Assembly: GCA_016839605.1 (NCBI GenBank)
Contig: JAEOTX010000008.1
Span: 1-12,656 of the forward strand
Direction: 5' to 3'
DNA from: Candidatus Thorarchaeota archaeon
GTDB lineage: Archaea; Asgardarchaeota; Thorarchaeia; Thorarchaeales; Thorarchaeaceae
Length of the DNA stretch: 12,656 nucleotides
Part shown: piece after piece, positions 1 through 12,656 of the stretch
Numbering within the stretch: position 1 is the first letter of the stretch
How the letters are laid out: each line of letters starts with the position of its first letter
Notes under the pieces: generated by a model
What the model was told of the DNA's origin: nothing
The model's database searches: none
Seen by the model: the letters and a program-made list of their open reading frames with translations, nothing else
Translations under genes and position numbers: made by a program

Positions 1-54
1 AACGATAAATACTGAATAGTAAACAGAACAAGTATAGACAGGTGGACTACCCTG

Positions 55-759
55 ATGCGAGAGAGAATGACTGCAGTACGTGCCGCAGTGGTCGATATTG
101 TAAAAGGAACCTATGGAGAGGATAATGGCCCTCATGTTGTTTCTCCCTATGGTGTGGAGCTAAGAAGAGTTGCTCTTGTTGGTCTAATAATCGACCAATA
201 CTCAGGAGAAGGATTTGCAAGCATAACCATTGATGATGGAACTGAAACGATAAGGGCAAAGGCGTGGGGAGGTGAAGCAGCCTCTCTTGATAAGGTTCAG
301 ACGAACATTCTAGCCCTTATTGTCGGAAAAATCAGGGAGTATGAGGGCGAACTCTATGTGGTTCCTGAAATAGTGCGTGAACTTGATGACCCAAATTACC
401 TGACCGTCCATAAAATGGAAAGATATGTAGCCATGCTCACTCGCAGTGGCGTAACCCCTGAGTTGCCTTCCGAATTGGAGGATTTTATCGAGGAATCAGC
501 TCCACCTCCAAAACCTGAAGCCCCCACAAAGAAGCCTAAGAAGAAAGGGACGCCTGTCACAGGTAAAATCTACAAGCAGATTATGCAATACATAGAACAG
601 AACTCGAAGGAAGAGGGTGTTCCTATTGCATCCATTGTAGATTTCTTTGAGGAAAAGGGTCATGACCGTACAGACATCCAGCTGAAAGTTCTTGATCTTC
701 AGGGTCAGGGAAACCTAGTTGAAGTGAAAGTAGGAGTCTATCGTCCAGCTGACTCCTGA
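55..759 (+). CDS. Replication protein A, RPA32/RPA2-like subunit (OB fold + Pro/Lys linker + C-terminal winged helix)
   Basis: OB-fold motifs RVALVG, TIDDGTETIRAKAW, IVGKIREYEG and helix DPNYLTVHKME. The C-terminal QIMQYIEQ..EG...LQGQGNLVEVKVGVYR matches the RPA32C winged-helix pattern. SD-like AGGTGG at 40-45. Confidence 0.85.
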   Translation: MRERMTAVRAAVVDIVKGTYGEDNGPHVVSPYGVELRRVALVGLIIDQYSGEGFASITIDDGTETIRAKAWGGEAASLDKVQTNILALIVGKIREYEGELYVVPEIVRELDDPNYLTVHKMERYVAMLTRSGVTPELPSELEDFIEESAPPPKPEAPTKKPKKKGTPVTGKIYKQIMQYIEQNSKEEGVPIASIVDFFEEKGHDRTDIQLKVLDLQGQGNLVEVKVGVYRPADS

Positions 760-808
760 ACCAAGTACGGAACGACAGCTTAATAGCGAAAACGGAGTGA
801 TTTGAGTT

Positions 809-1222
809 ATGGACGACTACGAAAGTCTACTAGAAAGGGCGCGTTCTCAAATTCCAGAAGATGCCTTCAAGAGATCCGGAGAGCGATTTCAGGTTCCAAA
901 AGTACAACTGATGGTTCAAGGTAACAGGAGCTTTTGGCAGAACTTTCAGGAGATTATCAACATTCTAAACCGACCAGGGAAAGAAGTGCTCAAGTATGTC
1001 GCTGGTCAGCTAGCCACAGCAGGCAATATTGAAGGGAGCAATGCCATTTTCAATGGAAAGTTCATGTCGGAACAGGTAGAAGACGTACTGAACAGCTACA
1101 TCGAGTCGTATGTGATCTGCCCAGTGTGCACTCGTCCAGACACTAGCATGGCTAAAGAGGGCAACGCATATTATCTGAGTTGCTCTGCATGCGGAGCTCG
1201 AACATCCGTGAGACCGGTCTGA
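809..1222 (+). CDS. eif2b: Translation initiation factor 2 subunit beta (aIF2-beta)
   Basis: N-terminal YESLLERA, then ERFQVP, QLATAG, YIESYVICPVC..PDT...CSACGA zinc ribbon. SD-like GGAGTGA at 794-800. Confidence 0.96.
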   Translation: MDDYESLLERARSQIPEDAFKRSGERFQVPKVQLMVQGNRSFWQNFQEIINILNRPGKEVLKYVAGQLATAGNIEGSNAIFNGKFMSEQVEDVLNSYIESYVICPVCTRPDTSMAKEGNAYYLSCSACGARTSVRPV

Positions 1223-1238
1223 AAGGAGGGACTACTCT

Positions 1239-1541
1239 TTGCCAAATGTCTACATGCGCGCACAAGAAACGCACGATGGACATTATGTAGTCGCCATGTG
1301 CGATGAAACACTTCTCGGTAAAACACTGATAGAAGGAAACGTCAAGTTCAAGGTTTCTCCAGAGTTCTATGGTGAAGAACTGGTTGATGTCAAGATTTGT
1401 GTCGAGCACCTCAACAAAGCAACTATCGCAAATATGGTCGGATCAACTAGTGTCAAGACTGCAATGAAGGCTGGTTTTGTACATGAGCAAGCCGTTGCTT
1501 ATATTGAGGGGCATCCACATGCGCAGTGGGTACGCCTCTAA
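1239..1541 (+). CDS. DUF424 family protein
   Basis: VVAMCDETLLGK, VSPEFYG, ATIANMVG, IEGHPHAQ. TTG start with GGAGGG at 1225-1230. Confidence 0.9.
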   Translation: MPNVYMRAQETHDGHYVVAMCDETLLGKTLIEGNVKFKVSPEFYGEELVDVKICVEHLNKATIANMVGSTSVKTAMKAGFVHEQAVAYIEGHPHAQWVRL

Positions 1542-1924
1542 TGATGACCTGATCCCCCGCCACAGAGTGCGTCCGTTCCCATATCAGAGGAGCTTCCTTC
1601 TAGATAATTCTGCAGGACTTCCCTCACAGTGGTGCCTTCTGCTCTAACAACCGCTATTCCCACCTGTTGAGTCACCATGTAGGGACGTTGGCCCATACCC
1701 AAAGCTATCAGGATCTTCACTCCTCTATCAGCCAAGGCCATCACAGGTTCAGCACAGCTTGAATGTCCTGCATTCATCACTGTTTCCACCTCGACTATTT
1801 TTCCGTCCTCAATAGTGGACACAACAAACATTGGACTCTTTCCAAAATGTCCACTTATTGGACTGTCGAGTCCCTCTTCTGAAATCGCTGGTACTGCTAT
1901 TTTGTGCGTAGTCATTTGTATCAT
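1538..1924 (-). CDS. NifB/NifX family (FeMo-cofactor-biosynthesis-like, COG1433-type) metal-cluster-binding protein
   Basis: KIAVP, SGHFGKSPMF, GMGQRP, GIAV, TVREVLQNYLEG and a Cys/His tail LCGGGSGHH. The start may be ATG 1915 rather than 1924. Confidence 0.88.
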   Translation of the reverse strand: MIQMTTHKIAVPAISEEGLDSPISGHFGKSPMFVVSTIEDGKIVEVETVMNAGHSSCAEPVMALADRGVKILIALGMGQRPYMVTQQVGIAVVRAEGTTVREVLQNYLEGSSSDMGTDALCGGGSGHH

Positions 1925-2352
1925 TCCTCGTCTGCTTTGAGCTGTTTCTTTCTGAATAGGGTGTCCGAGTCACACTGAGTACAGGTCTTGGGCCTCGGTT
2001 CCCCCAGCGGGGCATCTATTGTAGTCCCACAGTCTTTGCATTCAAACACACGGACGTCGCAGGGCAAGACGTACTCTCCCCCCTCAATCCGCAGTACAAT
2101 TCCTCGTACTATGGTCTCTGCAATCTTCTTTCTTGCTGAGGTCAGAATTCGGTTGAACGTAGGTTGGCTGACGTGCATAACATCGCTGGCCTCTCTCTGA
2201 TTCATTCCCTCAAAGTCTGCCAATCTTACAGCCTCAAATTCGTCAACTGTAATGAATATCTCATCAAGCTCTTTTGCAGGAATGCCAGCAGGCTTAAAGA
2301 TGGATATTAGTGGTTCTTTGGAAACCTTTCTGAACTGTTTCCTTCGAGGCAT
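1921..2352 (-). CDS. DUF134 (UPF0251) HTH protein with C-terminal zinc ribbon
   Basis: MPRRKQFRKV, FKPAGIP, DEFEAVRLAD.EGMNQ.EA..M.VSQPTF.RIL.SARKKIA..IV.G..LRIEGG, followed by CKDC...CTQC. ATGA overlap with the downstream gene. Confidence 0.93.
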   Translation of the reverse strand: MPRRKQFRKVSKEPLISIFKPAGIPAKELDEIFITVDEFEAVRLADFEGMNQREASDVMHVSQPTFNRILTSARKKIAETIVRGIVLRIEGGEYVLPCDVRVFECKDCGTTIDAPLGEPRPKTCTQCDSDTLFRKKQLKADEE

Positions 2353-2371
2353 AAAAAATTCTTAATCATAA

Positions 2372-2388
2372 TTCAAAAAAGGCTTCCG
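2372..2388 (-). promoter_or_regulatory. Putative BRE/TATA promoter for a leaderless DUF134-NifX transcript
   Basis: Minus strand reads CGGAAGCC-TTTTTTGAA, about 20-28 nt upstream of ATG 2352, with no SD. Confidence 0.35.
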
Positions 2389-2428
2389 ATGAGTCGATAG
2401 TATCAAGATGCTGGTACATCCTACCACG

Positions 2429-2435
2429 TTTTAAG
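2429..2435 (+). promoter_or_regulatory. Putative TATA box for a leaderless nmd3 transcript
   Basis: TTTTAAG about 22-28 nt upstream of TTG 2457. Confidence 0.4.
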
Positions 2436-2456
2436 GAATCAGAGAAACTAACACGG

Positions 2457-3536
2457 TTGAGAACCTTGACTGCCCCCTGTTATGAGTGCGGAGAGAAGTC
2501 TGTGATTGATGGACTCTGCGCCGAATGCTACAGAAGAGCACATCCATTAGTTGAGGTCAGGTCTCCACTCAAACTACTTGCATGCAAGAGATGTGGTTCG
2601 GTCAAAGTGCCCGGTGGATGGAAGACAATCCCTGAACACCCGTCTGATTCTGAAGAGATGATAGAACGCCAAATCGCGATTCTTCTACAGCAAGAGGTCA
2701 AACTGAAAGCTGACGATGTTCAAATAGAGTACTCTGAGGAGAAAATTCTGGATAGAGTCCGTCATATTTTGGTTGTAGCCTCGGGACGTTCTGATTCCTC
2801 TATAGCAGAGCACTCTGAGAGTTATCCTGTTGAAGTGCGATTCAGCTATGCTACTTGCGACACATGTGCGATGATGAGTGGGGGCTACTACGAAGCAACT
2901 CTCCAAATCAGAGCAGATGAGAGGTCGATTACTGACAAGGAAGCGGATGAGATCGTTTCGGTGGTCACGGACTTGACTGTGGCAAAGTATGGCAAGGATG
3001 TAAAGGCCTTCGTGACAGAGGTGAACAGGGATAGGTATGGATTGAACTTCAAGATTGGCTCTGAGCACCTTTGCAAGCGAATAGCAGATAATCTTCAACA
3101 AAGGTATCTTGCCCAACGCAAGGAGAACTACAAGCTCATTGGTGAAGATAAAGGGGGTAAGAAGAAGTATCGGATAACTATTCTCATTCGACTTCAAAGA
3201 TTCACACTCGGCGATTTCCTGCAAATAGAATCTGCGCCATGTCAGGTCACTGCAATGGGACGTGGAGGTCTCAGTTGCTACAATCTCAGGGATGGAAATA
3301 GATTCACAATCAATCCAAAAAGCGCAAGATGGAGGACTATCGAGTTTATTGCACCAGAGTCAGACAAACGCCAATTCATGGTTGTATCAAACCTCCCTAA
3401 TCAACCCGTCCAAATAATGGACTCTGAAAGCTTCGAGATGCATGAGATTGACCAGCAGGATTTGACAATAGATGTATCTAATGGTGATACCGTTTTTGGA
3501 CTCTGTCTAGATAATCGAGTATTCCTATTTCCTTGA
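2457..3536 (+). CDS. nmd3: NMD3 family ribosome-biogenesis protein with eIF5A-like C-terminal region
   Basis: Four CxxC pairs (CYEC, CAEC, CKRC, CDTC), GGYYEATLQIR, KLIGED..GKKKYRITILIRL and C-terminal VQIMDSESFE. TTG start. Confidence 0.93.
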   Translation: MRTLTAPCYECGEKSVIDGLCAECYRRAHPLVEVRSPLKLLACKRCGSVKVPGGWKTIPEHPSDSEEMIERQIAILLQQEVKLKADDVQIEYSEEKILDRVRHILVVASGRSDSSIAEHSESYPVEVRFSYATCDTCAMMSGGYYEATLQIRADERSITDKEADEIVSVVTDLTVAKYGKDVKAFVTEVNRDRYGLNFKIGSEHLCKRIADNLQQRYLAQRKENYKLIGEDKGGKKKYRITILIRLQRFTLGDFLQIESAPCQVTAMGRGGLSCYNLRDGNRFTINPKSARWRTIEFIAPESDKRQFMVVSNLPNQPVQIMDSESFEMHEIDQQDLTIDVSNGDTVFGLCLDNRVFLFP

Positions 3537-3627
3537 ATGTGTAGAGAGCTACGCTTAAATGGCCTCTCTCGGCAATGACAGTCAGGCCATTGCTATCCCA
3601 TTGCATGGCTACGAATGGAGGATTATT

Positions 3628-3960
3628 TTGTCCCGAAGAGGTAAACGTCGCAAGCCCCATGGTCCCCCGACCGAAGAACTAGTCCGTGTCAGGACTCCTA
3701 GACGTAACGATGGAGAGATGTATGGAATCATCATCCAAATGCTAGGTTTTGACAGGGTCAGAGTACGATGTGAGGATGGCGAGATTCGCATAGGGCGCAT
3801 ACCCGGTCGAATGAAGAAACGAGTCTGGATGCGTGTTGGTGACACTGTTATACTTACACCTTGGGACTTCCAAACCGATCAGAAGTGTGATGTTGTCTAT
3901 AGATATCGAGGCAATGAGCTTGACTGGCTTCAGAAGAAGGGACTTCTGAAGATGTTCTAG
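3628..3960 (+). CDS. eif1a: Translation initiation factor 1A (aIF1A)
   Basis: MLGFDRVRVRCEDG..RIGRIPGRMKKRVWMRVGD.V...PWDFQ...K.DVVYRY....WL. Start reassigned to TTG 3628 (GGAGGA at 3617-3622) instead of ATG 3559. Confidence 0.96.
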   Translation: MSRRGKRRKPHGPPTEELVRVRTPRRNDGEMYGIIIQMLGFDRVRVRCEDGEIRIGRIPGRMKKRVWMRVGDTVILTPWDFQTDQKCDVVYRYRGNELDWLQKKGLLKMF

Positions 3961-3967
3961 GCTAACC

Positions 3968-3972
3968 TTTTT
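3968..3972 (+). terminator. Possible oligo-T terminator after aIF1A
   Basis: T5 run (CCTTTTTCT) 7 nt after the stop codon. Confidence 0.25.
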
Positions 3973-4038
3973 CTGAATAACTATCAGATTAGTACTGAAA
4001 TTCGGTTCCTTTCGCGTCTGATAGGAAGTATTAGCAAG

Positions 4039-4827
4039 TTGAAAGATCTGGACAAGAAGCATGAGCGATTTCTATCTGAGCTCGATCGCCGAAAGATGAA
4101 ACGACGAAAGGACTCTGATGAATTCAAAGTAGTTGAAGGTGTGATTGATACTTCTACCCTTAAGGCTCTCTACAAGCTTCTCGGCAGAGGAACAATCAAT
4201 GCTCTTTATGGCTCCATTAGCACTGGAAAAGAAGCTAATGTCTATGCTGGAGAAGACGTGGAAGGTACTCCTGTTGCTGTCAAGATATACCGTATAAGTA
4301 CTGCTGAAACAGACTATATGCTTGAGTATATCATTGGAGACCCGCGTTTCAAACGAGTCGGTCGTCGCAGCAGGACCTTGATTCCCCAGTGGGCCCTCAA
4401 GGAGTACAAGAACCTGCATAGATATCACGAGGCAGGTGTTCGCGTTCCCAAGCCTCTTGACATTCAACAAAATGTCCTCGTTATGGAGTTCATTGGTGAC
4501 GTTGATTCTGGGACACCTGCAAGATTGATGAAGAATGTAGAAATCGAGTCTCCTGTTGACACGTTCAACGAAATCATCGATATGATTCAGACAGGCTATG
4601 TAAAAGCTGGACTAGTCCATGCTGACCTTAGCGAGTATAACATTCTGTGGCATAATGGTCCTGTAGTAATAGATGTTTCACAAGCGGTCCTCAAGACGCA
4701 CGACAATGCAAAGCGTTACATGCTCCGGGATATTAGCAATATCACAACCTTTTTCCAGAAACTCGGGGTCGAAGCTGAGAACCCAATAGAGATAGCAAAA
4801 GAGATACTGTCCTCTGGTGAAGAGTAA
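4039..4827 (+). CDS. rio1: RIO1 family atypical serine kinase/ATPase
   Basis: ISTGKEANVY, AVKIYR, WALKEYKNL, NVLVMEFIG, LVHADLSEYNIL, IDVSQAV, RDISN. TTG start. Confidence 0.96.
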   Translation: MKDLDKKHERFLSELDRRKMKRRKDSDEFKVVEGVIDTSTLKALYKLLGRGTINALYGSISTGKEANVYAGEDVEGTPVAVKIYRISTAETDYMLEYIIGDPRFKRVGRRSRTLIPQWALKEYKNLHRYHEAGVRVPKPLDIQQNVLVMEFIGDVDSGTPARLMKNVEIESPVDTFNEIIDMIQTGYVKAGLVHADLSEYNILWHNGPVVIDVSQAVLKTHDNAKRYMLRDISNITTFFQKLGVEAENPIEIAKEILSSGEE

Positions 4828-5394
4828 ATGCACTTGTATGAAACTGTCAGGGTGCCAGCTGAGCGTGTTGGCGTGATTGTGGGTCGTAACGGCAGAGTGA
4901 GAAAGAGAGTAGAGAAGCTCACGAATACAAATATCGAAGTGGACTCGGAAGGCATTGTAAAGATAACTGGTCGCGAGGACACAGAGGACCCAGTCTTAGC
5001 GTGGAAAGCCAAGGACATAATTCGAGCCATGGCTCGTGGCTTCAGCCCAAAGAATGCACTGTCTCTCATCGATGAAGATTCACGTCTGGTTGTCATCTCA
5101 TTGCGCGAAGTGGTAGGGTCTTCTCCTAACCAACTAAAACGAGTAGCTGGAAGAATCATTGGAGAAAATGGACGAACCAGACGAGCAATAGAGCAGATCA
5201 CAGAGGCTAGAATATCAATCTATGGAAGAACAGTGTCTCTCATCGGATATGATCCTGGTCTCCAATATGCCCAGAAAGCCGTTGACATGCTCATTGGTGG
5301 AGCCCCCCATGGTGCAGTTTATGCGATGTTAGAAAGAGCACGACGAGATATGACCAGAATGGGGGCAGAGCTCTGGGAAGACACTGACCTTTGA
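4828..5394 (+). CDS. dim2: KH-domain pre-rRNA processing protein Dim2/Pno1
   Basis: KH GxxG loops IVGRNG and GRIIGENGRT, plus RAMARGFSP and MLIGGAPHGAVY. Directly abuts the rio1 stop (TAA-ATG). Confidence 0.93.
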   Translation: MHLYETVRVPAERVGVIVGRNGRVRKRVEKLTNTNIEVDSEGIVKITGREDTEDPVLAWKAKDIIRAMARGFSPKNALSLIDEDSRLVVISLREVVGSSPNQLKRVAGRIIGENGRTRRAIEQITEARISIYGRTVSLIGYDPGLQYAQKAVDMLIGGAPHGAVYAMLERARRDMTRMGAELWEDTDL

Positions 5395-5447
5395 TGCGAT
5401 GTAATACCCGAGCTAATAATGCCAATGTCCTTCTCAGCAGTTGAACA

Positions 5448-6965
5448 ATGACCGTGCTTAATCAGTCTGTGGAAGGTTTTCGTAGTATTTCGCCTGCTGA
5501 GTTCTTCTACAGAAACCGCCAAATGGCAGGGTTTGGGAACCCAACACAATCAGTCTACTCTGCTGTGAGAGAGCTCGTTGAAAACAGTCTAGACGCTTGC
5601 GAAGACGCACAACGTATTCCTCAGATAAGGATTGCAATAGACAATCAGTCTTCTGACATATTGAGTATCAAAGTAGCTGACAATGGCTCAGGGCTTCCAT
5701 ATCAGCATGTGCCTGAGGCATTTGGGAGGGTTTTGTACGGGAGCAAGTATGATCAGAAACAGAAGAGAGGCACGTTTGGGCTGGGAGTGACAATGGCGGT
5801 CCTGTATGGCCAGATCACTACAGATTCATCAGTAGTTGTTCATACTCAAAACAGCTCCGGGCCGGGAAGAGTCTACAGTCTCCTGATTGATGTAGAAGAG
5901 AATATGCCAATTATAGAGAGTGAACGGGAACAGGTCCGGTCTGATGATGGTACGACTGTGACTATCAAACTCAGGGGTGATTTGAAACGGGCTCGAGAAC
6001 GAGTTGTTGAATACATTCGATTGACCACAATCGCCTCGCCACACGCGGTCATCGAGTTGGACTTTGGCGGTAGCGAGATGATCAAAGTAGGTGGTTGGTC
6101 TAAGAGAGTCCCTGAAGTTCCTATACCCTCCAAACCACACCCTAGATCTGCGGATTTGGAGATATTGAGGAGATTGATCACCAAGAGCCCGTCAAAAAAG
6201 CTTCACGATTTCCTAGTCGACTCATTTCAGCAGGTGGGCTCCAGAACCGCTTCGCGCTTTCTAAAGTTCCTTGGTCTTGACTCAAGCGCTAGAATCGAAT
6301 CACTTTCCCGTGCTGATATTTCTCGCCTAAGTACGTCCCTTCAGAGGTTTGATGGATTTGGCCGTCCAGATAGCAGATGCCTCAGTCCAGTTGGCGAGGA
6401 AGCCTTCCTACTCTCTGTAAGGTCACTCTTCAGTCCATCATGGATACTGTATTCGAAGCAGAAGCCTTCCGAATGGCAGGGAAACCCCTTCTTCGCAGAA
6501 GGTGTCATTGCACTCGGTAGCAAGTTTCCAAATGTGGATACACCAACCCTCTATCGATTTACAAACAAAGTGCCCCTGCTGTATGATGCAAACGATGATG
6601 TAATGACGAAGATAATGAGGCGTCTCAATTGGAAACGCTATGGATTCTCTGGACCCCTGCCTGTCGCTCTATTCATGCATTTTGGCTCAACAAAGGTGCC
6701 TTACAGAGCGGCTGGAAAGCAGTCATTGGCGCATATGATAGAAATCGAAACAGCGGTTACTGGTCTAATTCGAACGCTAGGACGAGCATTGAGGAAGCAA
6801 GCGGGCCGCCGTGACCAATCCAGACGCGATGCAAGAAAGATGCGCGAGTTCTCAGAGATGTTTAACATTATAGCCAAGTACGGTCCAGCCCTCGCAGAAG
6901 CAGAACCCCCTTCTTCTACGGCACACATGGTCAAAACCCTCTTTGAGGTGAACACTGATGTCTGA
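5448..6965 (+). CDS. top6B: DNA topoisomerase VI subunit B
   Basis: SPAEFF..N; GHKL motifs ELVENSLDA, DNGSG, RGTFGLG, GTTV; H2TH region; RFTNKVPLLYD; WKRYG; switch-lysine motif KVPYRAAGKQS. Confidence 0.95.
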   Translation: MTVLNQSVEGFRSISPAEFFYRNRQMAGFGNPTQSVYSAVRELVENSLDACEDAQRIPQIRIAIDNQSSDILSIKVADNGSGLPYQHVPEAFGRVLYGSKYDQKQKRGTFGLGVTMAVLYGQITTDSSVVVHTQNSSGPGRVYSLLIDVEENMPIIESEREQVRSDDGTTVTIKLRGDLKRARERVVEYIRLTTIASPHAVIELDFGGSEMIKVGGWSKRVPEVPIPSKPHPRSADLEILRRLITKSPSKKLHDFLVDSFQQVGSRTASRFLKFLGLDSSARIESLSRADISRLSTSLQRFDGFGRPDSRCLSPVGEEAFLLSVRSLFSPSWILYSKQKPSEWQGNPFFAEGVIALGSKFPNVDTPTLYRFTNKVPLLYDANDDVMTKIMRRLNWKRYGFSGPLPVALFMHFGSTKVPYRAAGKQSLAHMIEIETAVTGLIRTLGRALRKQAGRRDQSRRDARKMREFSEMFNIIAKYGPALAEAEPPSSTAHMVKTLFEVNTDV

Positions 6966-8007
6966 ACACGGTCCAGTCGACACACTCAAGGCAATAGGAA
7001 AGCGAATAACTGAAGCCATAGGAGAAGGTAGATTTCCTGTAGTAGATCTTCCAAATCGAGCCACTGACAATATAGAGTTCGATTCAAAACTCAACCAATT
7101 TGTACTGGGTAGCTCTCGGGTGAAGAGAGACTCAAGCAATCTGAAACATATCCGTAGCTTTGCTCAGCTCACATGGGTGGCATACTTCGCAAAACAACTC
7201 CTAGAGAGCGATCGGACAAGCTCTTTGAGGGATCTATACTATTCAAGTGAAGCTTTTGGTGTAAGATTCAATGACCAAGCGGAATCAGACCGCATCATCA
7301 CTGATCTTGAATGTCTGACAGGTCAGCCCCGTGAAGCCTTTGGTATCTTTCCAGAGGAGCGCTCATCCATTTTCGGGTCAGTCAAGCTGAATTACACTGT
7401 TCCTGGATACGAAGGACGCGAAGTCGATCTCACCTTGAGCCCAGATGGATTTCCAATAGGGAGAGCACTGATGACCGCTGAGCCTGTTGAAACAGATGCA
7501 GAGATGATTTTGGCTGTTGAATCTGGTGGAATGTTTTCACGACTAATAGAGACCAAAGCCTGGAAACGTTATCAGGCGATTCTTGTACAGCTAGGAGGTC
7601 AACCCCCACGATCCACTCGTGCCCTCATGCGAAGACTGCATGAAGCGTTTGGACTCCCTGTGTTTCTATTCACTGATGGAGACCCCTGGGGAATGCATAT
7701 AGCTCAAGTTGTAAAAAGCGGCAGCGCTAATGCAGCCCATATCTTAGGGCTAACGATACCCTCTGCTAATTGGATTGGTGTGACTCCAGAAGACATTCGT
7801 GAATATTCATTGCCTTCTGAACCAATGGCCAGTGCAGACCTCAAACGACTCGACGAACTTGCTCGTGACATCAGATATGAAGGGCCCGACTGGCAGAATC
7901 ACATAGCTGAGTTTCGCAGCCTCAGCAGAAAAGCTGAGCAACAGGCTTTCAGCAGATATGGCATGGATTTTGTAGTTGATACCTATCTTCCTGACAAGCT
8001 AGAATAG
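6958..8007 (+). CDS. top6A: DNA topoisomerase VI subunit A
   Basis: Catalytic SLRDLYY, QAESD..I.DLE, TOPRIM AVESGG, GQP.RSTR, FTDGDPWG, KAEQQA. 8-nt overlap with top6B and SD GAGGTGA at 6945-6951. Confidence 0.96.
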   Translation: MSEHGPVDTLKAIGKRITEAIGEGRFPVVDLPNRATDNIEFDSKLNQFVLGSSRVKRDSSNLKHIRSFAQLTWVAYFAKQLLESDRTSSLRDLYYSSEAFGVRFNDQAESDRIITDLECLTGQPREAFGIFPEERSSIFGSVKLNYTVPGYEGREVDLTLSPDGFPIGRALMTAEPVETDAEMILAVESGGMFSRLIETKAWKRYQAILVQLGGQPPRSTRALMRRLHEAFGLPVFLFTDGDPWGMHIAQVVKSGSANAAHILGLTIPSANWIGVTPEDIREYSLPSEPMASADLKRLDELARDIRYEGPDWQNHIAEFRSLSRKAEQQAFSRYGMDFVVDTYLPDKLE

Positions 8008-8017
8008 TGTCAACGAC

Positions 8018-9025
8018 CTATAACACAAGCAGGAAAACTGCACCAAATGCAATAATTGCCTGCAGCAATATCAACAGAGCAACGTTTCTTTCTTCAGTGA
8101 TGTTTTTTGAAAGGTGAGGTAGCATCCAATACATTGTGAATGGTCCTACTACCTTGAGAGTCCCATCCTCTCTAGGGCTGGCAAACTTCACATATTCAAT
8201 TCCTTTGTGTCGCACATAGAGCTTGTATATGATGTATAGGAGAAAATTGAGAGCGAATGGTGCGTACAGGAATATGGCAAGTCTATCCATATTTCCCAAT
8301 ATGAGTGCTGCAGCAATGGCCGCCCCCATGGGTAACCTTCCAACGTCTCCAGGCAATATCTTTGCTGGATACCTGTTAAAGATCAGAAATGCAATGGACG
8401 CACCAAGAAGCGCACCTGCCACCACTCCTGAGTCCAAGAGTGCTTGTGTAGTTTCGGTTCCATCGATAAGCGACAGGAGCAGCACATAAAGAATCAAGGC
8501 TGCAGAGTTGATAGCCGAGAGGCCTGCCTCCAAGCCATTCATTCCACCATACATATTGGTTGAATCAATGATGAAAGTCGTCATCAGCGGAATGACAACT
8601 AGTGGATAGAGAACACCAAAGTCAACAGTTCCGACTAGTGGAATGGACATCGTTGTTGTACCCTCCTGCATCACCATCATTGGGATAGCTGCAAGCATAG
8701 GAAGTACAATCTTGGTCCGATTCTTGAAATCGAGAGTGTCATCCAAAAGTCCAATCATTCCAGCCAGGAGTATCGAGACCAGTGCGGCTAGAAGTCCAGT
8801 ATCAACTTCTTGCCCCTGAAAAGTTGTGATTCCTATCACAATCAGCAAAGAGGTTACCAACGCAAACAGAACTACGAATCCGCCTCCTTTCGCTACCTCC
8901 GGTTTGTCGGGCTTGTGGACATCTATCCCCATTATGCCCTTTTCCTTCAGTAGTCTGATGGTGTTTGGCAATGCAAGGACTACTATTGCGAATGCAAGAA
9001 TGATGACTATGAGGACTGTTAACAA
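8018..9025 (-). CDS. aglH: UDP-GlcNAc:dolichyl-phosphate GlcNAc-1-phosphotransferase (AglH/Alg7/DPAGT1-like, PNPT superfamily)
   Basis: Polytopic hydrophobic protein with G.DVHKP..P.VA..GG, GLLDD, NMYGGMNGLEAG and FNRYPAKILPGDVG. TTG start with AAGGAGA upstream. Confidence 0.85.
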   Translation of the reverse strand: MLTVLIVIILAFAIVVLALPNTIRLLKEKGIMGIDVHKPDKPEVAKGGGFVVLFALVTSLLIVIGITTFQGQEVDTGLLAALVSILLAGMIGLLDDTLDFKNRTKIVLPMLAAIPMMVMQEGTTTMSIPLVGTVDFGVLYPLVVIPLMTTFIIDSTNMYGGMNGLEAGLSAINSAALILYVLLLSLIDGTETTQALLDSGVVAGALLGASIAFLIFNRYPAKILPGDVGRLPMGAAIAAALILGNMDRLAIFLYAPFALNFLLYIIYKLYVRHKGIEYVKFASPREDGTLKVVGPFTMYWMLPHLSKNITEERNVALLILLQAIIAFGAVFLLVL

Positions 9026-9210: not shown

Positions 9211-12189
9211 TTGAGCCTGCTGCATAGAAGAATAGGGACAATTGCGATAATGACGCTCTTCCTAACAAGTAGCGTCCTAGCTATGATTCCCTTAACAGGA
9301 ACTTGGGATTCTGATAATCTGGCTCACGATGCAACGCGGCTAAGCTCAGTGGCTGAGTCCACGAATAGTCTATCAATTTCATTTACGGACAGACACTATG
9401 GAGCTGCTGACGGGATTATTGACCCGTGGGAGTATGCATCTAACTTCACAGATTCTGTGACAGGAATAACAGCATACATGGAACATAATGGTACGACACT
9501 CTATCTCGGGCTAGAGGCTCCAACTTCTGGCTGGATTGGTGTAGGCTGGCAGAACTATACTGACAGTTTCACCACAGCTGGTCTGAACAATAGCGATCTA
9601 ATCTACGGATATTCACCTGGGACTCCGTCAGATGCAGTCCTGAGGGCTATTGGCACTGACTCTGTCACCGTTCACTATATACTGACTCTCCCCAATGGTA
9701 CAGAATTTCAGGAGGGTGATTACCCAAACGATGAATCATCAGAGCAGTTAGCTGCTCTCCCCTCGCTTGTGATGTACCGAGAGTCGATATTCGGTATGAG
9801 GATCGGAGAGGTGCGTAATTTCATCATTCCTGCGGTAGAGGCTTACAATGATCCAACCCACGATCTCTACGGACTTGACCTTGAGTATGACATAACTCTT
9901 ACTAGAATCACAAGAGATGCGCTGACCTATACAGACAATCCTGCTGACGAAAGTCAAATCGTCTATAGTGATGAGCATGGTGTGAGCACACTCCAACATG
10001 TTGCAGATGGCAATCAAGACAGAATACTGTCTGCAAATGCATCAGATGACGGTACCACCACTCAACTGGAGTACATCATTGCGATGAATAGTACTGATTC
10101 TGATGACATACCGCTCTTCAATAGCACCGATATCATGTACCCATTCTTCTTTATGTACGGCAATACAGAGGACACTGCTAAGCTTCCAGCTCAACGTACT
10201 CATTGGTCCGCGGCGCCAAAGTTTAAGCTGGTTCCAAACACAGGACCCACTATTATCGTAGTAAGTCCTACCTCGGGAGAGTCCCTTGCATGGGTTGCAA
10301 CTCTCGAGGTCAACGCAACCGACAATACTCGAGTAAAAAATGTCCAATACCGATTTGATGATGAAGAATCATGGACTGATATGGTATACAATAGTGAAAC
10401 CACCTTCTGGGAAGATCGCTTGGACTTAACAAGCTACGATGAAGGCTTCCATACTATCTGGTTCAACGCCACAGATCCAACTAATACAACCAGCATAGTC
10501 TCTGTTGACATAAACTTGGAACGCCCATTCATTCCTCTGCTTGGCATGCAGATTGATGTGGAAAGAAGAATAGGCACAGAGTCCTACATGAGGACTAGTG
10601 TACAGGACAAGTTCACCATTACAAACAACGGGTCATCTGTGATTTCTGCAATGGAAATGTATCTCCCAGTGAAGTGGGCGTCGAACCTCCTCACGGTGAC
10701 CGCAGTCGATATAGACGGAAATTCCATGGAGGTAGTACGACTTGAAGACCAGAATGGAATGATACGCTGGCGCCTTCTTTTCCAGAAAACAATCAACTAT
10801 GGCCAAGCCTATACTTTCACTACGACCATGCAGATGCACTCTCTAAACACTCTGACGCACACTACAAACAAGGAATATGACTTCACATTCCTAAAATTCC
10901 CAGTAGTTCCTTATGTCATCAGAGAAGCAGCTCTTGCCATAATTTACAGGACAGGTGACTCACAGTCCCCTGACTATCCCTCTCCAGACACTACTGCAAC
11001 AAATCTAGAGCCACTCACCATTGAAGAGTTCACTAATGCGTTTAGATCCTTCACACCACACCTCGTAGCTGATCGAACAACGGTGATCCGAGTAGATCCT
11101 TGGGGCTGGCTATCATATAAGGAAACAATTCGCGTTAGCAACATTGGTTTGTCACCTGAGAGTCTGATAGGAATCGACCTGCCTGCCTATGCTACGAATA
11201 TCAAAATCTATGACCGAGTTGGCTTGCTGGTCCAATCACATCAAGCGATAACCGGCGAGTGGAATGAGTCTAGGCATATAGGCATTGCACTCTTGGAAGA
11301 CAGGTTTGGACCAGAACAGTTCAAGCCAGGATTTTCCTACGAGTTCAACCTAGAATATGTGGTTCAGATCAACCCGTATGAGGAACTCGCAGAAGGTGGT
11401 AACCTTCTCGATGTTCCAATGGGTACGCTGAATGAGATTCTCATAGAGCACCATTGTGTTGATCTAGTTCTGCCCTATTCTGTGAATACGCTGAGTGTTT
11501 CTGGGGAATACAGACTATTACATGGCGTGTTCGACACCACTCTGAGATATGATGTGTACAATACGACCAACTTCAACCCAGCAGAAATCCAGCTCTTGTA
11601 TCAGGTATCCCTCATCATCACAGCAAGGCCACTCACCCTCACTGCAATTGTAGGTCTTATAGCTCTTGCTTATGTTTCCTACAGGGGAGTACGTCTAGGC
11701 ATTGAAGGAGGAGAGTTTGATGAGGAAGATGTTACCGTGGAAGATCAGAGACAGACAGGAGCTCCACCAGAGCTTCTTCGAGAATTTGCAAATCTCTACT
11801 CGAGGAAGACCGCTCTGAATATGGACCTTGAGAAATTGGAGGCTGCAAGACGGCGAGGTAAGGTCAAGAAGCGGGAGTTCATGATTCGAGAACGTGACAT
11901 AAAGTCCCAGCTCGATAAGATTGACTCAGGTCTGCCAAAGGTGAAAGAAGAACTATCAGGTCACGGTGCAAGATATCGCGATATGGTGTCTCAGCTTGAG
12001 CTTCATAATGAGAGGATTGAAGGTGCTAAAGCAGGTCTTCGTCAGTTGCTGCTCCGGAAAAAGAAACAGAGAATCAGTCGAGTTGCCTTTGAGAAGTCTC
12101 GTCAGGACTATCTAAAGACAATTCAGAAGGCGACAAGCGCAATTGACCGCACTCTACTTACCATCCAAGAGGAAGCCGGAGACCTTTAG
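9211..12189 (+). CDS. Ribophorin I (Ost1/RPN1)-like type I membrane protein with N-terminal DOMON-like, FKBP-type PPIase and Ig-like domains
   Basis: Signal peptide aa1-~24. DOMON-like aa~66-135 plus ~248-335. FKBP-like aa~145-234. Ig-like aa~343-437. Ribophorin-like aa~447-805 (DVERRI, PY, IRVDPWG...KETI, LPAYATNIKIYDRVG, RF...PGFSYEFNLEY). TM aa~807-824. Charged helical tail. Confidence 0.75.
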   Translation: MSLLHRRIGTIAIMTLFLTSSVLAMIPLTGTWDSDNLAHDATRLSSVAESTNSLSISFTDRHYGAADGIIDPWEYASNFTDSVTGITAYMEHNGTTLYLGLEAPTSGWIGVGWQNYTDSFTTAGLNNSDLIYGYSPGTPSDAVLRAIGTDSVTVHYILTLPNGTEFQEGDYPNDESSEQLAALPSLVMYRESIFGMRIGEVRNFIIPAVEAYNDPTHDLYGLDLEYDITLTRITRDALTYTDNPADESQIVYSDEHGVSTLQHVADGNQDRILSANASDDGTTTQLEYIIAMNSTDSDDIPLFNSTDIMYPFFFMYGNTEDTAKLPAQRTHWSAAPKFKLVPNTGPTIIVVSPTSGESLAWVATLEVNATDNTRVKNVQYRFDDEESWTDMVYNSETTFWEDRLDLTSYDEGFHTIWFNATDPTNTTSIVSVDINLERPFIPLLGMQIDVERRIGTESYMRTSVQDKFTITNNGSSVISAMEMYLPVKWASNLLTVTAVDIDGNSMEVVRLEDQNGMIRWRLLFQKTINYGQAYTFTTTMQMHSLNTLTHTTNKEYDFTFLKFPVVPYVIREAALAIIYRTGDSQSPDYPSPDTTATNLEPLTIEEFTNAFRSFTPHLVADRTTVIRVDPWGWLSYKETIRVSNIGLSPESLIGIDLPAYATNIKIYDRVGLLVQSHQAITGEWNESRHIGIALLEDRFGPEQFKPGFSYEFNLEYVVQINPYEELAEGGNLLDVPMGTLNEILIEHHCVDLVLPYSVNTLSVSGEYRLLHGVFDTTLRYDVYNTTNFNPAEIQLLYQVSLIITARPLTLTAIVGLIALAYVSYRGVRLGIEGGEFDEEDVTVEDQRQTGAPPELLREFANLYSRKTALNMDLEKLEAARRRGKVKKREFMIRERDIKSQLDKIDSGLPKVKEELSGHGARYRDMVSQLELHNERIEGAKAGLRQLLLRKKKQRISRVAFEKSRQDYLKTIQKATSAIDRTLLTIQEEAGDL

Positions 12190-12258: not shown

Positions 12259-12656
12259 ATGAAGGAATTCCTTAATCGCGATGAAGTCAGTGTCCGTGAA
12301 CTCTTGACTCCGAATACTAAGGCATTACAGATGTATCAATATCTTGCAGGATCTCCTAAGGTACAATCATACCTTCGGACAGCGAACAGGATGGCCGTTT
12401 CAAGGCTTGGGTACACTGATCATGGACATGTCCACGCCGAAGTAGCTACGTGGAACGCACTGAAGGCTTTTGACATCCTAGATGAAACATTTCAGCCCAA
12501 CATTGTAGCGGAGGGCATTGGTGACACTGATGATGCAAGACTTGTCATCCTGGCCTCTACATACCTCCACGACATTGGAATGGTTGTCCATAGAACTGAA
12601 CATCCTCAAGCATCATTGTCGTTGGCAATCCCAATTCTTGAACCCAAACTAGTTGA
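12259..12656 (+). CDS. HD-superfamily metal-dependent phosphohydrolase (partial, truncated by window end; probably COG3294-like)
   Basis: Not in the ORF track because it has no stop. Manual translation from ATG 12259: MKEFLNRDEV...ANRMAVSRLGYTDHGHVHA...LASTYLHDIGMVVHRTEH..., open to the last base. Confidence 0.88.
   Translation, partial: MKEFLNRDEVSVRELLTPNTKALQMYQYLAGSPKVQSYLRTANRMAVSRLGYTDHGHVHAEVATWNALKAFDILDETFQPNIVAEGIGDTDDARLVILASTYLHDIGMVVHRTEHPQASLSLAIPILEPKLV

Follow-up and report, generated by a model that had tools for sequence, protein, structure and literature searches.

A Thorarchaeial Ost1/ribophorin I with an FKBP domain nested in an N-terminal DOMON sandwich

The DNA analysed here, termed the window, is a 12,656-nucleotide stretch from a Candidatus Thorarchaeota metagenome-assembled genome (MAG) that is 80% complete with 4.6% contamination. 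The gene under study is an open reading frame (ORF) at 9211-12189 on the + strand which, according to the ORF list and its translation, has a TTG start and encodes 992 amino acids (aa). Its product is a Thorarchaeial Ost1/ribophorin I, an accessory subunit of the protein-glycosylation machinery. This membrane protein has type I topology, comprising an extracellular core, one transmembrane (TM) helix and a cytoplasmic tail, and bears on its extracellular side an N-terminal head composed of a DOMON sandwich with an FKBP domain in its central beta5-beta6 hairpin turn, followed by a Big_7 Ig-like spacer. An earlier note on this DNA had proposed the nesting, and the motifs that it quoted were found in this ORF at the residues it gave, but the head proved slightly wider (approximately 9352-10245) than the 9406-10215 it had delimited. 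The identity of the host protein was not mentioned in that note and largely determines the likely role of the head.

Homologues of the 992-aa protein comprised approximately 190-220 clustered proteins of 940-1000 aa. Those with names came from Thorarchaeota/Promethearchaeota MAGs and were labelled 'FKBP-type isomerase', 'Ig-like domain-containing' or 'hypothetical', such that the database labels miss the DOMON as well as the fact that these proteins are ribophorin I. A Pfam scan of the whole protein returned Big_7 (aa 346-416), a marginal FKBP_C match (aa 149-217) and nothing more. The following features were delineated, in which confidence of structural models is expressed as predicted local distance difference test (pLDDT) and HMM denotes a hidden Markov model described below.

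9211-12189, + strand: Ost1/ribophorin I gene with N-terminal head (translation; approximately 190-220 near-full-length homologues)
9211-9300, + strand: signal peptide or anchor, aa 1-30, HRR and then a hydrophobic stretch (Kyte-Doolittle windows; low pLDDT)
9352-9615, + strand: DOMON N-terminal half, aa 48-135, five strands, ending ...NNSDLIYGY (HMM positions 4-86, phmmer, alignment, model strands)
9616-9951, + strand: nested FKBP with two linkers, aa 136-247, Pfam core aa 149-228 (FKBP_C score, structural matches, pocket residues)
9952-10245, + strand: DOMON C-terminal half, aa 248-345, starting ...ESQIVYSDEHG (HMM positions 87-167, phmmer, alignment)
10246-10458, + strand: Big_7 Ig-like spacer, aa 346-416 (Pfam PF17957, E 2.8e-8, 34.7 bits versus a cut-off of 24.1)
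10546-11607, + strand: ribophorin I/Ost1 extracellular beta-rich core, aa 446-799 (AlphaFold2, Foldseek, PF04597 in relatives)
11611-11703, + strand: single TM helix, aa 801-831 (hydropathy; long helix 372-402 of the core model)
11767-12177, + strand: cytoplasmic four-helix tail, aa 853-989 (8WHN profile match; four long helices in the model)

The Kyte-Doolittle score rose above 1.6 in windows that begin at aa 7-12, and the hydropathy windows for the TM started at aa 799-802, placing it at approximately aa 800-820; apart from the signal-like N-terminal stretch and this helix, hydropathy revealed no hydrophobic segments in the whole protein. N-X-S/T sequons numbered eight in the head (9442-10122, aa 78-304) as compared with 3.3 ± 1.6 in shuffles (fraction 0.009), and were not enriched in the ribophorin core (three versus 3.3 expected). 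An extracellular, glycosylated head fits this sequon excess, and the signal-like N-terminus and single TM also count toward such placement.

A DOMON sandwich interrupted by an FKBP domain

Sequence searches indicated that the head aligns to uninterrupted DOMON proteins on either side of the FKBP. A phmmer query with aa 30-345 against 1.84 billion representative proteins returned 119 matches, the ten best of which (E <= 1.7e-38) were colinear orthologues or fragments thereof. Most of the others were proteins of roughly 150-600 aa that aligned to the query in two stretches; these insert-less matches had E values down to 2.2e-22, and in all ten that were scanned the Pfam DOMON family (PF03351) was recognised at 42-97 bits, above its curated cut-off. 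On re-scoring, 76 uninterrupted DOMON segments aligned to aa ~50-135 and aa ~245-325, with a median gap between the two stretches of 18 aa in the targets versus 133 aa in the query. In one insert-less segment, for example, query residues 56-134 corresponded to target residues 37-110, and 248-317 to 114-183. Separate FKBP proteins aligned to aa ~135-257 only. The motifs DGxIxxxEY and GWxxxGF were common to the 992-aa protein and the Pfam-verified DOMON proteins, and a MAFFT alignment located the insertion where, in the uninterrupted DOMONs, the strand '...NIIIGY' turns tightly into the strand 'vvlsDeiG', with 112 residues (aa 136-247) occupying the place of 2-4.

We then built a local HMM from the 76 uninterrupted segments, which had themselves been selected by similarity to the query, and found that the intact head splits it into two matches, exactly at positions 86|87. 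Deletion of aa 136-247 in silico, which the earlier note had suggested, gave one continuous match spanning HMM positions 4-168 at 133 bits, as compared with no more than 1.1 bits for 20 shuffles, while the insert alone scored nothing. This confirms that a single DOMON beta-sandwich is made up of aa 48-135 as its first half and aa 248-345 as its second. That domain scanners would miss the host fold was also borne out: PF03351 had no match in the whole protein, nor in either half alone even at E <= 10; the nesting conceals the host fold from Pfam. Among the 42 aligned homologues that constitute the family set used throughout, seven matched PF03351 at E <= 0.01 (best 6e-5). A PF03351 search of the source genome gave no match, but control genomes were equally blank, which makes this outcome uninformative. 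Within the family, invariant residues are numerous in the DOMON; the adjoining Big_7 domain was found by Pfam in 21 of the 42 members.

An AlphaFold2 model of aa 26-345, made with the 42 aligned homologues, had a mean pLDDT of 78.4 and a predicted template modelling score (pTM) of 0.70, the unstructured part being the signal and linker region. Structural alignments, which are given in the numbering of the model, were computed against representative structures with VIA-align, and Foldseek served as a second method. The top VIA-align match was ethylbenzene dehydrogenase gamma (2ivf_C, Z 14.8, 163 residues, root-mean-square deviation [rmsd] 2.7), together with NxrC (7b04_C, Z 13.8), the DOMON of human dopamine beta-hydroxylase (DBH; 4zel_B, Z 13.8, 142 residues pairing model 49..320 with chain 46..203), cytochrome domains of cellobiose dehydrogenase (Z 11.7-12.4; 1d7c_A 12.4), and the carbohydrate-binding CBM9 1i82_A (Z 11.0). 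Each of these DOMON-type alignments covers both halves with more residues than either half contains, and in the C-terminal half they extend to model residue 317-320. FKBPs, in turn, aligned to model 116-213 only (Z 11.2-12.2), including the SlyD structure 3cgm_A (Z 12.2, rmsd 1.9), 4nnr_B (Z 11.3, rmsd 2.2, 92 of 101 residues) and 2pbc_A (Z 11.2). Several FKBP alignments had model ranges starting at residue 31-38; these were treated as alignment spill-over because FKBP13 (Z 11.2-11.3), which has no insert-in-flap (IF) domain, aligns end to end within model 117-213. Foldseek returned 32 matches at E <= 0.001, and the matches listed at that level are FKBP-type proteins. In the model, therefore, both halves fold into a single sandwich in which the FKBP is a guest domain. 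The split phmmer matches, the deletion test and this model together bear out the proposal of the earlier note that the FKBP is inserted in a loop of one DOMON rather than fused end to end, and the predicted sandwich, which matches solved DOMON-type domains, is the fold that it had anticipated.

The guest itself was recognised by Pfam FKBP_C (PF00254) to an extent that depended on the query. The insert alone scored 26.1 bits, over profile positions 8-91 of 94, relative to a cut-off of 21.1; the head scored 22.8, and the whole protein 20.6, just below the cut-off. Across the family, FKBP_C matched 38 of the 42 members. Lumenal FKBPs of the endoplasmic reticulum (FKBP2/13, FKBP14) were among the better sequence matches, and the source genome holds two other FKBP genes. 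The absence of a SlyD-type IF domain, also claimed previously, held: the flap between Tyr212 and Tyr226 has only 13 residues. SlyD and the archaeal FKBPs that carry an IF domain are similar in their FKBP fold (3cgm_A, as above; SlyD delta-IF construct 4odp_A, Z 10.3) and in having a nesting that involves an FKBP. However, the FKBP of SlyD hosts the IF chaperone domain as its guest, whereas in the Thorarchaeial head the FKBP is the guest. Relative to the DOMON superfamily (PF03351; 4ZEL, 1D7C, 2IVF, 1I82), the single-sandwich topology is the same (Z 11.0-14.8), and the head DOMON differs in having a 112-aa guest at its central hairpin and in the replacement of the haem Met by Leu. The result is a clean example, and an old one given its order-wide presence, of a domain lodged within another domain's central hairpin.

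The Ost1 host and its distribution

The remainder of the protein was identified by its fold. In an AlphaFold2 model of aa 430-992 (pLDDT 88.1), a beta-rich region was accompanied by a single long TM helix, a disordered linker of acidic character and a set of four long helices. The top eight Foldseek matches to this core model were all human RPN1 or yeast Ost1 (6.1e-29 to 1.3e-18), among them 8b6l_O (6.1e-29), 6s7o_E and 6ezn_A, and the next family, integrins, was at 6e-8. A sequence search of the PDB found none of the eukaryotic RPN1/Ost1 chains, which were found by fold comparison alone. The family profile did match PDB 8WHN, the cytoplasmic domain of OST1 from 'Ca. Prometheoarchaeum syntrophicum' MK-D1, over 140 of 161 residues (E 1.1e-6); this domain pulled down human ribosomes in vitro (PMC11417166). 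Pfam Ribophorin_I (PF04597) had no match in the window protein, was matched by 10 of the 42 family members (best 4e-8), and was matched by homologues of the core from Asgard archaea outside the Thorarchaeia at 4.6e-32 over profile positions 2-435 of 437. The source genome contains one match to the Ost1 core query and one STT3/AglB match (928-aa frame, 195 bits). The 992-aa protein is therefore the Thorarchaeial Ost1/ribophorin I. Its tail (11767-12177) is the most conserved part, with long runs at least 90% conserved in the 42 homologues, and is basic.

The type I topology, ribophorin beta-rich core, single TM and cytoplasmic helical domain are common to this protein and MK-D1 OST1, and the Thorarchaeial Ost1 differs by approximately 400 extra N-terminal residues relative to other Asgard Ost1. 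The lumenal domains, TM and cytosolic bundle of human RPN1 (8B6L, 6S7O) and yeast Ost1 (6EZN) also match the core model, at 11-14% identity. The eukaryotic proteins, however, have neither a DOMON nor an FKBP head, and eukaryotes supply a translocon FKBP in trans. A full-text literature search retrieved no paper on an FKBP or DOMON on archaeal ribophorin I.

We surveyed 151 Asgard genomes using the Ost1 core and the head as queries. The core was present in 128 of the 151, including all 26 other genomes of the same family, in frames of ~950-1230 aa (one gene being split at contig ends), and the single genome of the sister family, where Ost1 lies in a 1034-aa frame with an FKBP at the same position. 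In the other Asgard families searched, full-length Ost1 frames were 560-727 aa, and in those that were scanned with Pfam no FKBP, DOMON or Big_7 was detected, with Ribophorin_I starting shortly downstream of the signal peptide at approximately aa 37-71. The head query found the same 27 other genomes (26 from the family and one from the sister family), always within the Ost1 frame, while outside the order it found just stand-alone DOMON or FKBP genes at unrelated places. Because the head resides in the Ost1 frame in all 27 other genomes and at the same position in the sister family, the sequences place it as an order-wide feature of single origin. The earlier note had suggested looking for orthologues lacking the insert: no orthologue with a DOMON and without an FKBP was found with the head query in the 151 Asgard genomes or among the 119 representative matches, every Ost1 with a DOMON also carried the FKBP in the 27 other genomes searched in the order, and the insert-less relatives are only separate DOMON proteins. 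In one genome of the family, the orthologue occupies a 1233-aa frame instead of one of ~990 aa, for which an upstream read-through or an extra N-terminal extension is possible.

Ligand sites and proposed role

In haem-type DOMONs, the haem Met sits in the loop before beta5, and the ligands proposed for CG8399 are Met286 and His379, approximately 93 residues apart (PMC10691727). Among the insert-less relatives, Met was present at the ligand column in 63 of the 76 segments, and in all 63 of these a His followed at a distance of 80-110 residues, the commonest spacing being +92/+93. Members of the Thorarchaeial family had Leu at the Met column in 42 of 42 cases, and the His column was His in 30 and Arg in 10, including the window protein. 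Met/His haem binding by the head DOMON was consequently rejected, the ligand Met being Leu throughout, and from the alignment such binding is effectively excluded for the Thorarchaeial head. The insert-less relatives that carry names came from Hodarchaeales MAGs. Most of the insert-less DOMON proteins keep both the Met and the His ~92-93 residues downstream, and may therefore be extracellular b-type cytochromes.

The FKBP pocket was compared using FKBP12 numbering, with alignment to Burkholderia and nematode FKBPs. Several positions were kept or conservatively replaced, including Y26 and Y82 (each in 42/42), F36 (hydrophobic), I56 (Leu) and F99 (Tyr). Others were replaced, namely D37 by Gln (40/42), R42 by Pro (42/42), F46 by Ser (36/42), V55 by Ala or Ser, and W59 by Tyr (42/42). 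The predicted pocket is hence remodelled yet strictly conserved, and conservation of the FKBP across the family is about as tight as that of the DOMON. The sister-family orthologue has canonical FDTS and VIEGF motifs and matches Pfam FKBP_C at 6.9e-13; because it retains these catalytic motifs, the ancestral insert was probably an active FKBP.

Our preferred reading, which we hold with moderate confidence, is that this Ost1 uses its FKBP-in-DOMON head to present the FKBP to nascent secreted proteins near Sec-AglB. The DOMON would be a former haem-type domain that has lost its Met ligand and now forms a rigid scaffold, or a ligand- or glycan-binding platform, and would keep the FKBP next to both the Sec translocon and AglB. 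In that position the FKBP would engage stretches containing proline in nascent secreted proteins during their emergence and glycosylation. Given its altered but strictly conserved pocket, it would more probably serve for binding or as a holdase, its isomerase activity being weak or specialised, than work as a classical FKBP12-like enzyme. Overall, we infer a function as foldase, holdase or adaptor at the translocon. The glycosylation context, in the form of a conserved, divergently oriented glycosyltransferase neighbour (see below), was counted in favour of this reading, and a precedent by analogy may be seen in human FKBP11, which is located at the OST-A secretory translocon (PDB 9N9J/9YGY; PMC12804085), where OST denotes the oligosaccharyltransferase. 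In both arrangements an FKBP lies on the non-cytoplasmic side beside the OST, and 9ygy_A aligned to the insert at Z 10.7 with 23% identity. FKBP11 is, however, a separate single-pass protein recruited by ribosome binding, whereas the Thorarchaeial FKBP is covalently part of Ost1 and nested. With the head restricted to a single archaeal order, the two arrangements are unlikely to share a common descent.

Several observations weigh against the preferred reading. Catalysis may have been lost, as suggested by the D37Q, R42P, F46S and W59Y replacements and by the whole-protein Pfam score of 20.6 versus the 21.1 cut-off. Furthermore, confidence in the head model is moderate (pLDDT 78, with a span of 63-78 over the five models), and in the human precedent the FKBP11 pocket is buried by CCDC134, and FKBP11 acts as an adaptor rather than an isomerase (PMC12804085).

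More tentatively, the head might constitute a built-in co-translocational folding or quality-control station that grips nascent polypeptides, and perhaps glycans, at the Sec-AglB exit; we regard this elaboration as possible but doubtful. Were it true, it would be the first instance of an oligosaccharyltransferase subunit with folding assistance permanently built in, and archaea would have arrived independently at an equivalent of factors such as FKBP11 that eukaryotes recruit to the OST in trans. Malectin is another factor recruited to the OST in trans in eukaryotes. More broadly, Asgard archaea carry eukaryote-like OST and translocon subunits whose working outside the eukaryotic cell is largely untested, and this lineage shows Ost1 as a platform for an extracellular FKBP, echoing the recent FKBP11 finding at the human OST-A translocon. 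It would represent a natural experiment in which secretion, N-glycosylation and folding are coupled on the ATP-free side of the membrane. The head is lineage-specific and therefore informs the diversification of the archaeal OST, not the ancestry of the eukaryotic complex.

The alternative that survives best, which we consider unlikely but credible, is that the nested FKBP is a non-catalytic adaptor, its pocket permanently binding a partner or a segment of the OST, translocon or S-layer rather than nascent chains. The same replacements at D37, R42, F46 and W59, near-uniform across the family, suggest a ligand that is conserved but different; the marginal FKBP_C score of the whole protein points in this direction as well, as does FKBP11 recruiting CCDC134 through a buried pocket, a protein whose role as a prolyl isomerase is disputed by the authors of that study (PMC12804085). 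However, the aromatic floor of the Thorarchaeial pocket is either retained or changed conservatively (Y26, Y82, and Tyr at F99 and W59), and the canonical catalytic motifs of the sister-family orthologue also speak against a purely adaptor function.

It is also conceivable, if improbable, that the DOMON is the working part, binding a glycan or other ligand (lipid-linked oligosaccharide, glycoprotein or S-layer glycans), with the FKBP a structural embellishment; the earlier note had likewise suggested that the sandwich may supply substrate or glycan binding. The superfamily includes the sugar-binding CBM9, which the model matched (1i82_A), and the loss of the haem Met alongside many invariant DOMON residues would be compatible with another ligand. 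Nevertheless, the best structural matches were cytochrome-type and DBH-type DOMONs and not CBM9, no sugar-binding residues were identified in the head DOMON, and the comparably tight conservation of the FKBP is contrary to a passive role.

A haem-b cytochrome domain that transfers electrons outside the cell, like those of cellobiose dehydrogenase or CYBDOM proteins, would accord with the haem-binding DOMON-type domains that head the list of fold matches and with the Met and His of the insert-less relatives, at CG8399-like spacing (PMC10691727), but the uniform Leu at the Met position, and the Arg at the His position in the window protein and in 10 of the 42 members, render this explanation very improbable. 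Finally, an incomplete MAG with some contamination might raise the suspicion of a chimaeric assembly, of half-domains that are independent of each other or of a resemblance by chance, but the same uninterrupted frame in 27 other genomes and in the clustered homologues, contigs of independent studies that cross the upstream DOMON-FKBP junction, and the shuffle and deletion scores (<=1.1 versus 133 bits) refute an artefact, the probability of which we take to be negligible.

Gene integrity and neighbourhood

Contigs from three metatranscriptome-labelled sediment runs, representing close relatives at 90-99% identity, cover parts of the gene, and two of these pass through the upstream DOMON-FKBP junction with no joint. 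Because DNA may be present in RNA libraries and the RNA-run shares were small (0.06-0.10), these contigs are not counted as proof of transcription and lend weak support to expression of the gene. In the ribophorin core, the contig of a wetland relative showed two pairs of a 1-base deletion and a 1-base insertion at 11169-11289, the members of each pair being 9 and 8 bases apart, respectively; these paired indels are either short compensated frame shifts or assembly errors.

Upstream of Ost1 lies the glycosyltransferase gene mentioned above:

8018-9025, - strand: GT4 glycosyltransferase, AglH/Alg7-like by family (Pfam Glycos_transf_4, 2.3e-28)

This gene is divergent from Ost1 with 185 bp to the Ost1 start, and the pairing was kept in six of the six loci fetched, including that of the sister family. 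The block farther upstream (55-8007) encodes an OB-fold protein, NMD3, RIO1 kinase, a KH protein (KRR1/PNO1-like KH domains), Top6B and Top6A, with functions in ribosome biogenesis and DNA topology. The gene order OB-fold, NMD3, RIO1, KH, Top6B, Top6A, GT4, Ost1 was retained in all six loci, again including the sister family. Downstream of Ost1, an ORF at 12259-12654 (+ strand) runs off the window; it had no Pfam match, and is conserved at 47-89% identity and syntenic in 6/6 loci.

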